From Naegleria gruberi (Eukaryota), in NCBI GenBank assembly GCA_000004985.1, contig GG738885.1: 64,000 nt of DNA, one strand, 5' to 3'. Position 1 is the first letter of the stretch; each line of letters opens with the position of its first letter. The notes under the pieces were generated by a model. The model made no database searches. It saw only the letters and a program-made list of their open reading frames with translations, and was not told where the DNA came from. A program made the position numbers and the translations under genes. Positions 24,130 through 29,840 of the stretch are shown here, one piece after another.

Positions 24130-24445
24130 GAAAGATTCTCAAAGAGTTTCGAAAACATTTGGTGAGTTTCCATTAGAGTTCAACAGTAAGGTAAATGATC
24201 AATTGCCATATATGAAGGAGAGACTTTGGAATTATAAAAACTCCAGGCTGTTGTAATTTTTTCTTCCAGATTGCAAATCTTATCTTTGGTAATGTTCTTG
24301 TTTCGTCCAATCAACAAGAAAATAACCCTAAGAGTGGATGTAGTTGGTGGTGTAGCCGGTAGCCGGTTACAGCCGGATGGTAGTGCGGGTAGTCGGAAGC
24401 TGTTGAATACACCTTCAAAGCCAAAAATTAATAAAAGTTCTATTT

Positions 24446-27013
24446 TTAAAATTTAACTTTATGGAAATTCATGAAAAACGAGTATTGGTTGAACATTTCT
24501 TTGCCAGCAATATTATGAATCAAACATTTACCAATTATTTGATTTAGTGCAACATAGCCTGTTGTTACATGAATGTTTGAATCAATTAATCTATATCCAA
24601 TAATTGGATGAACCGAAGAGAGACACTTTTTGATGTTGGTGAAATATACTCTTTGCTCTTTAACCTCAACAAATTGACCAACAAGTAAGGAACCATCCTT
24701 TGCCTTAAATAAAATAAATTCTTTGTTTTGTACAATTGGAATCCATTTCTTGTTTTCAGATTGATTTCTTACCCAAGGATAATTGATGTTAATTTGTTTT
24801 TGAAGTTTTTCAAAATTCGCTCCTCGTTGTTCTAAATTTTTGTGATTGGAAGAGTCATTAAATTGTTTGAAAACTTTGTGTTTCAATTCAAAAAGCAATG
24901 CCCAGAAGAACCTGGCATTTCCCCACTTCAAACAATCTTCAAAAATATGAGAATTCCAATGAAAATTAGGATTTGTAAAATTACCATTACCATATAGGGA
25001 AATGACTTGTTTCCTGAAATTGAAATGTTTCAATTTTGCAATTTCAATATTTGAAGGTGAAACCAAATCTTGAATCAAAGAAAGTACGTATTCTACGTGA
25101 TTTGACCAACATATTATATGTTTCTTCTTCAAACTGAATGAAACATCACAGTGATTCTTATTATTAATAAGAAAATCATACATAATTGGGCAACTAAAAA
25201 CCACGAATTCCAAAAAATGATCTGCTGAACAATCATTGTAATCTTTTGCAATCATTTTCAAAGGTTTACCATGATTGTTTGTATACTTGTCCATAACAGA
25301 CTGAAAATCACTTAAAATGTTGGTGTAATTGAAATATTTGAAAAATTTTTTAAGGTGTCTCCTTAAATCACCTTGAATAGAACCATGCATTAATTCAACA
25401 GTTGAATTTTCAAAAATATCACAATCCTTAATTTGTAAAAACGGACACTTCATTTGAGTATTGTTACTTTGTCGAACTTTTTCTTTTACCTGTTTGGATT
25501 TTTTGGACTTGGAATCAATCTGCATATCTTTGATTTGAATATCAGCGACTGTAATAAACTTGTAGCCATTACATGAGGTACCAATTGATAATTTTTGTTG
25601 CATTTCAATTGCTTCAGTAACAGTTCTTAAAGGATAGACTAAAGGTGTTGAAATGTCATTAGGACATTTACAATAATCTCCTTTTGGGCATTTACATTTA
25701 GAACATGTATAGCTTTCAAGAAATAATGATAGCCATCTTTGTACAGAATCCCAAATCCAAGGACCTATTAGAATTCGAATCTTTTCAATTGAATCAGTGT
25801 AAGAGTTATAAACATCAATTGATTTTCCATTAATTTCATTCAACTCTTCAACTAGTTTTGTTGCTAATTTGAATTGGGAAATATTTGTTTTTGAATTTCC
25901 TAGTAATGAAATTGATTCCATATTCGAAGTAAGAAAGCTTCGATTAAAATTCAATAAGGTGAAATATAATCCTGCTGTTTTGTCTGTACCTGTTCTATGT
26001 TTTCTAAATTCATCAATATAATACATAATGACAATTGGTGTTTCGTCTGATGAACATTTCTTTTTCAATTCTTGAAATCCTTTTGATGCGTATGGTTCAT
26101 AATCGAATAATGGTTCTTTTGTTAAATCCTCTGGCTTATTACCATTATGTATCTTTTTTGCAATAAAAGGATCTGCATATAAATATTTGATACAATTTAC
26201 AACACCATAGTATACATATTGGTCCTGTTCAGTATCATTTTCATCAATTATTGGTTGTTGAGTTTTGAAATATTTACATCTGGTTTGAATTTGATCGTAT
26301 GAAAGACATTCTTGACCACATAATTTCAGTATTTCAGTTGTATAATTGTATTGTTCTTTTGTAAACTGTTTGGATTTCAACATCATGAAACTATGCCATT
26401 CTAATTCATTAGCGAATGGAGCAAACTTATTTGAAGGATCAGTTACTTTGTATGGGTTGTTGACAGAAAAATTTTCTAAAACTAAATCTTCAATATCTTC
26501 ATAAGGATTGACATCTTTCAAATTGATATCAGTATCATTTTGAATTTGTGAGATTTTCCACTTAATATCTGTTAGCTCTGTATTTTTATCAATTGGTGTC
26601 CATGTTGATTCAAAACCTCCACACTCCAATGTATGATGTTTAAAATTGATATGATCAACATATTCCTCCATTGTGGTGTAATGTTTATCACAACACACTT
26701 TTGGAAACTTGATGGAATGTTCTTTTGTAATATGTTTCAACAACGTTTCAGATTTGACACAACTATAATCACATAAACAACATCCAAGTTTTTCCTTAGT
26801 AAAATTTTTACACTCAGAGTTTTCACAGTTACATTTAATTTGAATCTTGAATTTTGCACTTGAAATTGGTTGGTAAAATACTGTGTGTAAAGATTTCTTG
26901 CAAGAATCACAGCGTCTTTCAAAATAGATACCTTGTTCCTTGTTATTTTGTAAAGACATTTTTTTTCGTCTAAAAACTGGCTTTCGACTGAAAATTCGAA
27001 TCAAAAAAAACAC
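24446..27013 (-). CDS. Transposase-like protein (CACTA/En-Spm 'Transposase_21'/KDZ-type core), 855 aa
   Basis: Cys-rich N-terminus (CDSCKK...CNCENSECKNF...CCLCDYSC). Core region IVIMYYIDEFRKHRTGTDKTAGLYFTLLNFNRSFLTSNMESISLLGNSK resembles the DGF...S.WPV.L...NLPP..R.....L..L.PGPK block of CACTA transposases. Further CxC motifs (YTCSKCKCPKGDYCKC) and an H-rich block occur downstream. The likely start is the second Met (MSLQNN...). Confidence 0.55.
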   Translation of the reverse strand: MFFLIRIFSRKPVFRRKKMSLQNNKEQGIYFERRCDSCKKSLHTVFYQPISSAKFKIQIKCNCENSECKNFTKEKLGCCLCDYSCVKSETLLKHITKEHSIKFPKVCCDKHYTTMEEYVDHINFKHHTLECGGFESTWTPIDKNTELTDIKWKISQIQNDTDINLKDVNPYEDIEDLVLENFSVNNPYKVTDPSNKFAPFANELEWHSFMMLKSKQFTKEQYNYTTEILKLCGQECLSYDQIQTRCKYFKTQQPIIDENDTEQDQYVYYGVVNCIKYLYADPFIAKKIHNGNKPEDLTKEPLFDYEPYASKGFQELKKKCSSDETPIVIMYYIDEFRKHRTGTDKTAGLYFTLLNFNRSFLTSNMESISLLGNSKTNISQFKLATKLVEELNEINGKSIDVYNSYTDSIEKIRILIGPWIWDSVQRWLSLFLESYTCSKCKCPKGDYCKCPNDISTPLVYPLRTVTEAIEMQQKLSIGTSCNGYKFITVADIQIKDMQIDSKSKKSKQVKEKVRQSNNTQMKCPFLQIKDCDIFENSTVELMHGSIQGDLRRHLKKFFKYFNYTNILSDFQSVMDKYTNNHGKPLKMIAKDYNDCSADHFLEFVVFSCPIMYDFLINNKNHCDVSFSLKKKHIICWSNHVEYVLSLIQDLVSPSNIEIAKLKHFNFRKQVISLYGNGNFTNPNFHWNSHIFEDCLKWGNARFFWALLFELKHKVFKQFNDSSNHKNLEQRGANFEKLQKQININYPWVRNQSENKKWIPIVQNKEFILFKAKDGSLLVGQFVEVKEQRVYFTNIKKCLSSVHPIIGYRLIDSNIHVTTGYVALNQIIGKCLIHNIAGKEMFNQYSFFMNFHKVKF

Positions 27014-27018
27014 AATAA

Positions 27019-27958
27019 ATGCCAGGTAAGTACTTCCACATCAACCTTGTAACTTTTCCATCAACTGCCAATTTTACATCATTTCAGCATCATCACCATC
27101 AGTAAAAGTAAGTAGTTTAGCACCATTTATTCAACATAAATTATTCTAATAACAAAGAAGAAGACTAAATTAACCATAACATGTTTACCAGAAGCCACAT
27201 ATGAAAAGTTGGCTGACTGTTATCCCAAGGCTGCAGTGGGATGGAAGGATACTCAACGAGCGTAAGTAAGCAAATTGTTAGTTATTTATTTGATTTTATA
27301 TAGACTAAAAAGAGAAGTTATGCAATGTATTCGAATTTACTGTAAGCGAAAAGGGATTCCCCAAAATGATACTGCCATGAGTTCATGTAAAGATTGTCTG
27401 CAATTAACTTTTGGTGAAACATTGTTCAGAAAACATGTTAATGGATTGTCAACGGATACATATAAATACGTGCAAAGTATGTAAGTGAAGTTTATCCTTA
27501 AATTATTTATTAATTATTTTCCAACAATTAATTAGAGCTATTGTTATGTCAGTAAGATATTCAGCAATCTGTGGAGTTCTTTTAAAAGAAAGAGTCTAAT
27601 AGAATTAAAGAAAAAAGAGAAGCCAAAAAGAAAGAAGAATTCCAATGTAGAAGTTTCTAATATAGAAGGGGTTCCATCCTCAATTCAAGCAACAGCTATT
27701 CAACCTTCTACCTCTTCACCAACAAGAGAACATGTCAGAGCCAACAATGGTCAATTCTCTTCATTGCAGAGCTATGTTGCAGAAGATGAACAAGTTGTTT
27801 TTTTAACACTTGTTAAAGATTGGATCAAAAAACCTGACACAAGAGCAACACAACCTTCAGCAGACGCAATTAATTTGCTTGATATGGAATCAGATGGTGC
27901 AGATCTTTATTCAGATAATGGTCAATCAGACTCAGAAGAAGCACAACAATTGTAAATA
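27019..27958 (+). CDS. 5-exon gene encoding a basic Cys-containing N-terminal module and acidic C-terminal tail (putative transposon accessory/DNA-binding protein)
   Basis: GTAAGT donors and (T)nAG acceptors give MPASSPS(VK)|KKTKLTITCLPEATYEKLADCYPKAAVGWKDTQRA|LKREVMQCIRIYCKRKGIPQNDTAMSSCKDCLQLTFGETLFRKHVNGLSTDTYKYVQSI|KIFSNLWSSFKRK...VAEDEQVVFLTLVKDWIKK...SDNGQSDSEEAQQL*. Frames are open only across the proposed exons. The tiny first exon (ATGCCAG) is the weakest part. Confidence 0.5.
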
Positions 27959-28059
27959 AATAAATCAGTTTTACTCAAATTATGAAAATTGTAATGGTCA
28001 ACAGAGTAAATTAAGGGAAACTTTCAGTCAAATACCAACACACTAAAAGCCGCATAGAA

Positions 28060-28140
28060 ACTGAATGTTCACCGAATAGTCACTGAATGTTTACCATATA
28101 ATAACTGAATGGTTACTGAATATTTATTGAATAGTTACCC
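28060..28140. repeat. Degenerate tandem repeat, 6 units of ~ACTGAATRKTTAC
   Basis: gaatgttcacc gaatagtc actgaatgtttacc ... actgaatggtt actgaatatttattgaatagttaccc. Confidence 0.5.
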
Positions 28141-28938
28141 ACCAATTTCATTCCTTTACCCAACAATCAACCGACTACCAACCAACTAACACTGAACTAA
28201 AACGGTCAGGAGAGTATGGGCTGATATTCGATTAATTTCTGGAAAATCGTTCAGTTGTTTTCGGAAACAAGTTGGGGAAAATTAGGGTTGTAGTCGGTGA
28301 TAGTAGGGTTGTGGATGGGGTTTAGACGGAACATAGCCAACTAAAAACCAACTATAACACTGTCTATTACCCAAGTACTCCACTCTTAGGACAAGGATAC
28401 GCCACAACAATGCATCCTTGAATAATAATAGTAGCATGCTCATTATTGGAATAACAGGTGTGGATTCGGAATAGTGGATTTTGCTTGAATTCTTCAGAGG
28501 TAAATTACAAGAAATTCTCTGGGGATGAATCGTTATAATTTAACCAATTCGTTGAATTGCTGATCTTAACATTAAATAATCTGTATGGAATGGATCCACT
28601 AATCTCTTGTTGCATCACCATTTGAATCTCCATAGGAAATGGTTAAAATCTCTTCATCATTAAGAGAGTCGTTATATTTTTTTTAAGGCGCGAAATTCTT
28701 TTTCGCAAGTTGTATAATTCTGGAATGTTTCTAGTTGATGTACACAAATCATTGTACTATCCATGGAAGGAGACCTTGGAAATGACGAGTATAAGATAAG
28801 CTGTAGTGACACAATCAGGATGTGCTCAATACTCTCCATAGAATAACTAACAGCATGGTTTCATGAAATGGAATGTGGACTACACTTGCAATATGCTGGT
28901 CATCAACTGCATCACGTCTTGTGTTGGGGTGCTTCGCT

Positions 28939-29543
28939 TTAAGTGTTTATTAAGGTAAGGTTCATTTTACGACTTTGCCATTTAGAAGCGGTAATGCCAA
29001 GATCAACAGCATAGGACAAGATACGGAGTGCCATATTCTTTTGAATTGTTTTTAGAGTTCCACCTTCATCGACCTTAAACTTCTTCTCATTTTCATCACT
29101 GGTGCTGACCATTGGAAAAACAACTCCATTCTTGAATGTTGAGGTAATTAATTTCTGGATTTCTTCAAATTCTGGACTCTCTGAAAGCCCTGCTAACAAC
29201 TGACCTTCATCTTTAACTGTTTCGAAGGTGGATCCCTTCCAATTCAAGATAACTCCTTCAAAACCCAAATAACGACTGGAATAATTGTCAAATTTGGTTA
29301 TCACAAACATTATTCTAATTGAATGAAGTTCAACACATTGTCGATTTTTCCAGCCAAAATTTTCTTGAATTCTTCAATTGATTTGACATGGGCAACATCT
29401 ATTGTAAAGATAACCAACTGAATTCTATTCTCTTCATCGTGATTGTTTGGAATAGTTTCACTTCCGAGAAATTGTTTTTTTGGATCAATAAGGCCCCTGA
29501 ATAAGTGTTCAAAATAATTCTTGGCAGGTTCTTTTTGAATCAC
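28939..29543 (-). CDS. Hypothetical protein split into two abutting ORFs (77 aa + 123 aa) by a frame break at 29310 (TAATG)
   Basis: ORFs 29310..29543 and 28939..29310 are same-strand and overlap by one base at the TAATG junction (stop TAA 29310-29312, start ATG 29308-29310). No GT..AG pair is available for an intron. This points to an indel or assembly error near the scaffold gap, or to a pseudogene. Confidence 0.35.
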
Positions 29544-29555
29544 ACCATTTGTTTT

Positions 29556-29650
29556 TAAGGTGTTGATGAATCACGTTTCGGATTTCTTTGTAATGAATCA
29601 CGTTCAGAATTTTGGAATGGATCACGTTTCGAATCTAATTGAAAGTAACA
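29556..29650. repeat. Three tandem ~27-bp repeats sharing (G)ATGAATCACGTTYSGRAT
   Basis: gatgaatcacgtttcggatttctttgta / atgaatcacgttcagaattttggaatg / gatcacgtttcgaatctaattg. The block lies just upstream of the start of the 29543 minus-strand ORF. Confidence 0.5.
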
Positions 29651-29790
29651 TGACAACAAGCTTGTTTCAAACAAGAAAACAAAAAATGGGATCAACAACA
29701 TCTACCCTCTATTACTATGCAGAAAACGATGATTTCGATCGTATTCAAAAGAAATCTCTAACAGTTATTATTATGATGCATCTGGTATTT

Positions 29791-29840
29791 NNNNNNNNNN
29801 NNNNNNNNNNNNNNNNNNNNNNNNNNNNNNNNNNNNNNNN
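29791..29840. other. Assembly gap (run of 50 N)
   Basis: Literal n characters. Flanking annotations are unreliable. Confidence 1.

Follow-up and report, generated by a model that had tools for sequence, protein, structure and literature searches.

In this study we analyzed a 64-kb stretch of the Naegleria gruberi genome (64,000 nucleotides of contig GG738885.1, hereafter the window), in which two genes lie head to head between a pair of inverted repeats at positions 24327-28390. With high confidence, we consider this interval to be a cut-and-paste (class II) DNA transposon, intact in structure and probably autonomous, that belongs to a divergent heterolobosean/environmental lineage of the CMC (CACTA/EnSpm-Mirage-Chapaev) clade. 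The element and its component parts, including terminal inverted repeats (TIRs) and a candidate target-site duplication (TSD), are as follows, with the strand in brackets where one applies.

24327-28390: the whole transposon, 4,064 bp, delimited by the inverted repeat; homology with another copy (L002) breaks off exactly at its left end, and its size and layout are like those of complete relatives
24325-24326 (+): left copy (AC) of a candidate 2-bp TSD, the flanks reading AC, element, AC
24327-24347 (+): left TIR, of which 12 bp are perfect (CCTAAGAGTGGA, 24327-24338) and about 20 bp match with one indel
24340-24396 (+): left subterminal (G)TAGYYGG array, four exact and two degenerate units in a single orientation
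24446-26959 (-): transposase gene, 837 amino acids plus stop, intronless, placed by its open reading frame (ORF), homologs, hhalign and an AlphaFold2 (AF2) model
26960-27018: 59-bp spacer between the divergent start codons, defined by geometry and kept in L002
27019-27955 (+): accessory gene, five exons (27019-27025, 27088-27107, 27158-27261, 27304-27480 and 27538-27955), 241 amino acids
28060-28138 (+): right subterminal tandem repeat, approximately seven units of 11 bp each (ACTGAATAGTT)
28171-28354: right subterminal TAGYYGG units, at 28171, 28182, 28337 and 28348 on the minus strand and at 28291 on the plus strand
28370-28390 (-): right TIR, with its perfect part at 28379-28390
28391-28392 (+): right copy (AC) of the candidate TSD

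The minus-strand ORF of 855 amino acids reported in a preliminary description of this DNA is present at 24446-27013, where it opens with a mechanically assigned GTG. Given that the gene models of other copies begin with MSLQNNKEQ, translation is likely to start at the ATG at 26959, yielding the protein of 837 amino acids. The ORF is a 99% match to an N. gruberi predicted protein (P0001) encoded on a 530-kb contig. A direct Pfam search with the transposase recovered no transposase family, zf_ZIC at E 0.44 being the sole match; by direct hmmscan, Transposase_21 (PF02992) did not match at E <= 1. A PHROGs search gave no match, a search of PDB sequences returned weak zinc-finger matches only (e.g., ZFAT), and a word-indexed protein search found the protein itself only. 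Because the direct Pfam search was negative, the family assignment depends on profile or structural evidence.

By a full HMMER (phmmer) scan of 1.8 billion representative sequences, we identified 70 homologs, many of which are 830-930 amino acids long. When 38 of these were scanned against Pfam (E <= 0.01), four matched Transposase_21, all above the curated cut-off, four matched DUF4218, three DUF1258 and one Plavaka. Alignment by hhalign of a 16-sequence family alignment (A2) with the four Transposase_21 proteins gave a probability of 99.9% (E 2e-32, 424 columns), which bears out the CACTA-type transposase proposed in the preliminary description. The conserved block that had been singled out there (IDEFRKH...LLNFNRSF...LLGNSK) aligns with D-W-F...NLPR...LLGI of the Transposase_21 proteins. 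Within the transposase, the following regions were distinguished.

24845-26062 (-): catalytic core, approximately residues 300-705, with D316 (26012-26014), D404 (25748-25750), C419/C422, H667/H671 and E691 (24887-24889)
26717-26782 (-): canonical C2H2 zinc finger C60-x2-C63-x12-H76-x4-H81, its spacing read from the sequence, inside an N-terminal Cys-rich region
24491-24718 (-): C-terminal beta-barrel, approximately residues 748-823, Sm/Tudor/PWWP-like

Residues D316, D404, C419, C422, H525, H667, H671 and E691 were invariant in alignment A2 (n = 16). In the hhalign alignment, the D/D/E triad, C-x2-C and H-x3-H of the family are paired with DWF, DIPA, GCSKC, PNMHxHxH and FER of the Transposase_21 proteins. 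A combination of D/D/E with C-x2-C and H-x3-H has been published as the signature that EnSpm/CACTA, Mirage, Chapaev, Transib and RAG1 share (PMC12730594). The C..C / C..C / CP.C...H columns of the N-terminal Cys region are also conserved in A2, and the N-terminal zinc finger is presumed to be a DNA-binding module. A confident AF2 model built on the family alignment (predicted local distance difference test [pLDDT] 77.6, predicted template-modelling score [pTM] 0.73), in which residues 86-174 are disordered, displays an order of strands and helices that we read as an RNase-H-like core. The family therefore carries what characterizes CMC/CMCT transposases, i.e., a DDE triad on an apparent RNase-H-like fold together with C419-x2-C422 and H667-x3-H671.

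When the AF2 model was compared with the PDB using Foldseek (E <= 1e-3), all 22 matches were to RAG1, amphioxus RAGL or Helicoverpa Transib. Structure comparison scored RAG1 highest (19.4, with 446 residues aligned), followed by RAGL (17.4), P element transposase (10.8), Transib (8.0) and Hermes (6.9). The window element might on this account be a Transib/RAG1-like element and not a CMC member, as the structures most similar to that of its transposase are RAG1, RAGL and Transib. Transib and RAG1 make a 5-bp TSD, however, and the 5-bp flanks of the window element differ from each other; the sequence profiles, moreover, join the family to Transposase_21. Transib and RAG1 also have a C(2)C / H(3-4)H signature in common (PMC12730594), which would fit such an element. 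We therefore judge a Transib/RAG1-like origin to be improbable, even though it is the alternative that fares best.

The 12-bp inverted repeat noted in the preliminary description is exact, but it lies at 24327-24338/28379-28390 and not at 24320-24331/28380-28391, the left arm having been misplaced by 7 bp. Allowing one indel, it can be extended to about 20 bp (GTAGTTGG versus GTACTTGG). At up to one mismatch, CCTAAGAGTGGA has two matches in 64 kb, where 0.14 were expected. The region contains 156 inverted-repeat pairs, and a 12-bp pair 4 kb apart is thus unremarkable by itself; the TIR gains its weight from the homology breakpoint and the motif arrays, both of which coincide with it. The element ends read CCTAAGAG...CTCTTAGG, i.e., CCTAAG..., or 5'-CC...GG-3', and are neither CACTA nor CA..TG. 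The termini of CMCT elements are 5'-CA..TG-3' "in most cases", and CACTA in EnSpm (PMC12730594).

Both ends carry repeat-unit arrays, the right one in both orientations, as had been described earlier. TAGYYGG occurs 14 times on the two strands of the window, and nine of these occurrences fall within the element ends: four on the left at 24341-24396, all on the plus strand, and five on the right at 28171-28354, four on the minus strand and one on the plus strand. After dinucleotide shuffling (200 replicates), the number in any 250 bp never exceeded two. The arrays had also been portrayed as GC-rich islands unlike their surroundings. Their GC content is indeed raised (0.41 versus approximately 0.30) in surrounding DNA that is AT-rich (approximately 30% GC), but other parts of the window reach the same values, and the contrast had been overstated. 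The tandem array of 11-bp units, which was also scored at a period of 22 bp, lies beyond the end of the accessory coding sequence and before the right motif array; no such tandem array is present at the left end.

The 2-bp sequences flanking the element are equal in three of the four elements for which both ends were defined (AC in the window, TT in L036 and AA in L037, the latter two being relatives introduced below), whereas those of L001 differ (TA/AT); the chance of equality is approximately 0.08 per element. This suggests, provisionally, a TSD of 2 bp, bearing in mind that metagenome contigs can mix the flanks of different copies. Such a length falls inside the range of 2-5 bp known for the CMC/CMCT clade (PMC12730594).

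Further copies were sought and found elsewhere in the genome. Cluster look-ups placed at least three copies in N. gruberi on separate contigs, i.e., the 530-kb contig, a 24-kb contig encoding P0004 and a 10-kb contig encoding P0072. A 1,819-bp ENA contig that encodes P0073 (L002) proved to be an internally deleted derivative, 92-98% identical to the window element. Read in the orientation of the window, L002 consists of unrelated flank until ...ctttgat/CCTAAGAGTGGATGTAGTTG, where the slash marks the junction, and homology starts exactly at 24327. As the flank up to that point is unrelated, L002 represents a different locus in which the match begins at the outermost base of the TIR, the same left terminus as in the window copy. 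The deleted copy retains the presumed divergent promoter and, in shortened form, the subterminal motif array. TIRs and subterminal arrays are thereby associated with multiple copies, deletion derivatives included, as in the CMC/CMCT clade.

These copies bear directly on a second alternative, in which the two genes would be a pair of host genes derived from a transposase, immobile or domesticated, with the 12-bp inverted repeat present by coincidence. It is not improbable for 5 kb of AT-rich DNA to contain a repeat of that length, neither ORF is disrupted and each is annotated as an ordinary predicted protein, and the 64-kb window holds no second copy. Against this, the second copy at another locus stops exactly at the repeat, there are several copies per genome, one of them a deletion derivative, the motif arrays are symmetric at both ends, and relatives have TIRs at equivalent positions. 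We consequently give domestication very little credence, somewhat less than a Transib/RAG1-like origin. Weakest of all, and barely worth entertaining, is a transposon of the KDZ (Kyakuja-Dileera-Zisupton) type, the other half of the label in the preliminary description: the transposase does have Cys clusters and an N-terminal zinc-binding region, and KDZ transposases also have CxC domains (PMC12730594), but neither the query nor any of the 38 homologs matched KDZ_trans or the CxC families (the matches being to Transposase_21, DUF4218, DUF1258 and Plavaka), the window flanks (aaaataac versus acaaggat) show no 8-bp duplication of the Zisupton kind (PMC12730594), and C-x2-C and H-x3-H at the positions of the CMCT signature, with the hhalign match to Transposase_21, refute it in practice.

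The head-to-head, five-exon gene of the preliminary description forms a coherent coding sequence of 241 amino acids with four introns of the form GTAAGT...AG (62, 50, 42 and 57 nt). Exons 4 and 5 match an NCBI gene model, NAEGRDRAFT_79192 (P0084, on the same contig as P0001), at 99%, whereas exons 1-3 were modelled from splice signals and reading frame only. The encoded protein has a Cys-containing N-terminal half, a basic KKKEKPKRKK stretch resembling a nuclear localization signal, and an acidic tail. It matched no Pfam family at E <= 0.01, the TnpA family Transposase_24 included. Following splicing, the accessory proteins of the window element and of its relative L001 were 26% identical over 96 residues; this similarity is colinear but weak (E 0.004 in a single comparison), and in both proteins a basic stretch is followed by an acidic tail. 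The 59-bp spacer that separates the two start codons is presumed to be a bidirectional promoter.

Copies differ in small lesions of the accessory gene, as judged from minor copy-specific differences. At the boundary of exon 4 and intron 4 (27478-27540 in the window, approximately 262-205 in L002), the window reads agtat/gtaagt while the reference and L002 read agtatt/gtaagt. As a result of this 1-nt difference at the donor, an acceptor 2 nt downstream would have to be used, giving SIYCY and not SISYCY. In L002, an extra A creates an in-frame stop in exon 5.

More distant relatives share the same design. Each of six related contigs (L001, L036, L037, L039, L040 and that of P0074) has a gene or exon series on the opposite strand, immediately upstream of the transposase gene; the small, divergently transcribed gene is a conserved part of the element. 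Complete elements could be delimited in three of the six.

L001, 15-5379 (5,365 bp): TIR CCTAGGAAGGTCAAAACA; CCATGG near the ends, 5 of 5; flanks TA/AT
L036, 3-4552 (4,550 bp): TIR CTTAGCAGATA; CGTGTAC near the ends, 4 of 4; flanks TT/TT
L037, 96-4681 (4,586 bp): TIR CTTATGAGGATGATTTTGATTG; GTCAAT near the ends, 11 of 13; flanks AA/AA

The size and layout of the window element agree with those of these three. Termini resembling C[CT]TA.GAG are common to the relatives and the window element, the relatives reading CCTAGG, CTTAGC and CTTATG, and the subterminal motifs of the distant relatives are lineage-specific. Two of the homologs (P0054 and P0035) were deposited under bacterial metagenome-assembled genomes (Candidatus Thiodiazotropha sp. 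and Spirosomataceae bacterium) on contigs of 2.5-3.6 kb; these are most likely eukaryotic contigs that were mis-binned. A metagenome scan with a protein pattern found no relatives, and a metagenome scan with a TIR pattern matched 33 loci, none of which displayed extended similarity, such that these matches were ascribed to chance.

Within the Heterolobosea, N. gruberi also possesses a paralog family that is 35% identical (P0071, 842 amino acids), and homologs were found in N. lovaniensis (P0003, P0010, P0011 and P0075), N. fowleri and Willaertia magna. Six N. lovaniensis contigs carry P0075 (742 amino acids), for which there are several accessions; this suggests a very recent amplification of a related element in that species.

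Several observations weigh against an intact and autonomous CMC transposon. No transposase family was recovered when the protein itself was searched directly against Pfam, PHROGs and PDB sequences, and the 5'-CC...GG-3' ends are unlike the CACTA or CA..TG ends typical of the clade. Only the inverted repeat and the analogous ends of relatives mark the right end, no right end of a second copy having been recovered, and equal 2-bp flanks were seen in three of four elements, with metagenome contigs that may join flanks of different copies. The accessory protein has no recognizable domain, and the model of P0084 (pLDDT 37) was unusable. Both ORFs of the window copy are open, but this copy is without a segment of approximately 130 bp, or 43 amino acids (QTNTKSAIEHQPLKRLCLSKPEKPVKLSSS..PQND), that is present in P0072, P0004 and L002 (869-1006 in L002); the segment would fall at approximately 26630, between residues 108 and 109, in the linker that is disordered in the AF2 model. 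The window copy has, in addition, the 1-nt difference at the exon-4 donor. Given this difference and the 43-residue gap, current activity of the window copy is unproven, and no transposition has been observed.

Homology with characterized transposases suggests how the element might move. The N-terminal zinc-finger region of the 837-residue transposase would recognize the element ends, with the subterminal TAGYYGG units offering multiple binding sites that may aid end pairing or synapsis. The putative RNase-H-like DDE core (D316, D404 and E691), which may be buttressed by the C-x2-C / H-x3-H zinc module common to RAG1 and Transib, would then cut at the CCTAAG... termini and allow staggered reinsertion, the staggered cut probably leading to a 2-bp duplication. 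The accessory protein is most likely an accessory factor engaged in TnpA-like end binding or synapsis, or in regulation; a part in nuclear import is a further guess. Deletion derivatives such as L002 would rely on transposase supplied in trans.

To the right of the element lies a host gene on the minus strand (28939-29750), 56% identical to its paralog NAEGRDRAFT_58312 (P0085). Since comparison with P0085 sets the end of this gene at 28939, the element is intergenic, approximately 550 bp downstream of it. A host ORF reading across the reconstructed junction was also considered; it was free of stop codons with 0, 2 or 3 bp removed, but P0085 showed such junction ORFs to be due to chance. The host gene is split into two frames at approximately 29310, where the paralog is continuous (..HKINYMFVLTKFD..); a frameshift, pseudogene formation or an error in the sequence may account for the split. 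P0085 contains a P-loop-like GALGDGKSG, and a 50-N scaffold gap (29791-29840) follows beyond the host gene. In L002, the flank (1340-1819) holds the 3' end of a gene whose product reads ...LAGNSLLECVVYGRIAAHEI, which we take to be fumarate-reductase-like, and the deleted copy sits approximately 55 bp past the stop codon. With the window copy also lying past the 3' end of a gene, there may be a preference for 3' intergenic DNA (n = 2).

Taken together, the data indicate that two N. gruberi "predicted protein" genes (P0001 and NAEGRDRAFT_79192) are the two genes of one transposon, and that a sizeable group of environmental proteins of approximately 850 amino acids that Pfam does not detect are transposases of the CMC type, RAG1-like in their architecture. 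These findings are of use for the annotation of heterolobosean repeats and, modestly, for the deep history of the RAG1/Transib/CACTA clade. They overturn nothing known, the element being real but fairly ordinary.

Amongst known systems, maize En/Spm (a CACTA element with Transposase_21 and DUF4218) resembles the window element in the profile-level homology of its transposase, in its short TIRs and short subterminal repeat arrays, in having a second, non-catalytic protein, and in its deletion derivatives. The window element differs from it in that its termini read CCTAAG in place of CACTA, it probably makes a duplication of 2 bp and not 3 bp, the transposase is below the threshold of Pfam detection, and the accessory protein has no match to Transposase_24 (TnpA). 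The second protein, furthermore, comes from a separate divergent gene, whereas both En/Spm proteins arise from one alternatively spliced transcript. Mirage makes 2-bp duplications. Distant homologs of the window transposase match DUF1258 and Plavaka, linking it to Mirage and Plavaka, but the DUF1258 matches are weak (21.5-27.9 bits versus a cut-off of 33.1) and Plavaka was matched by one of 38 homologs. PlavakaA makes 2-bp and PlavakaB 2-3-bp duplications, and the termini of both, TGT..ACA and CATCA..TGATG, respectively (PMC12730594), differ from those of the window element. With RAG1, RAGL and Transib the family has the fold alone in common: the sequences are 8-12% identical, a RAG2-like partner is absent, duplication length and termini differ, and by sequence profile the family joins Transposase_21.

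The presence of CMC elements in Naegleria is already known. RepeatMasker totals for N. lovaniensis list 38 copies of "CMC-EnSpm", making up 0.23% of the genome (Liechti et al., 2018; PMC6125883, Table 3). Genus and superfamily label are the same, and N. lovaniensis encodes homologs of the transposase, but those totals come without element structure, termini, duplication or accessory gene. To this, the present analysis adds the exact structure, the family-wide two-gene layout, the termini, a TSD that is probably of 2 bp, and an architecture that is RAG1-like over the full length of the protein. The element is best filed as a divergent CMC/CMCT member and not as a canonical CACTA element.

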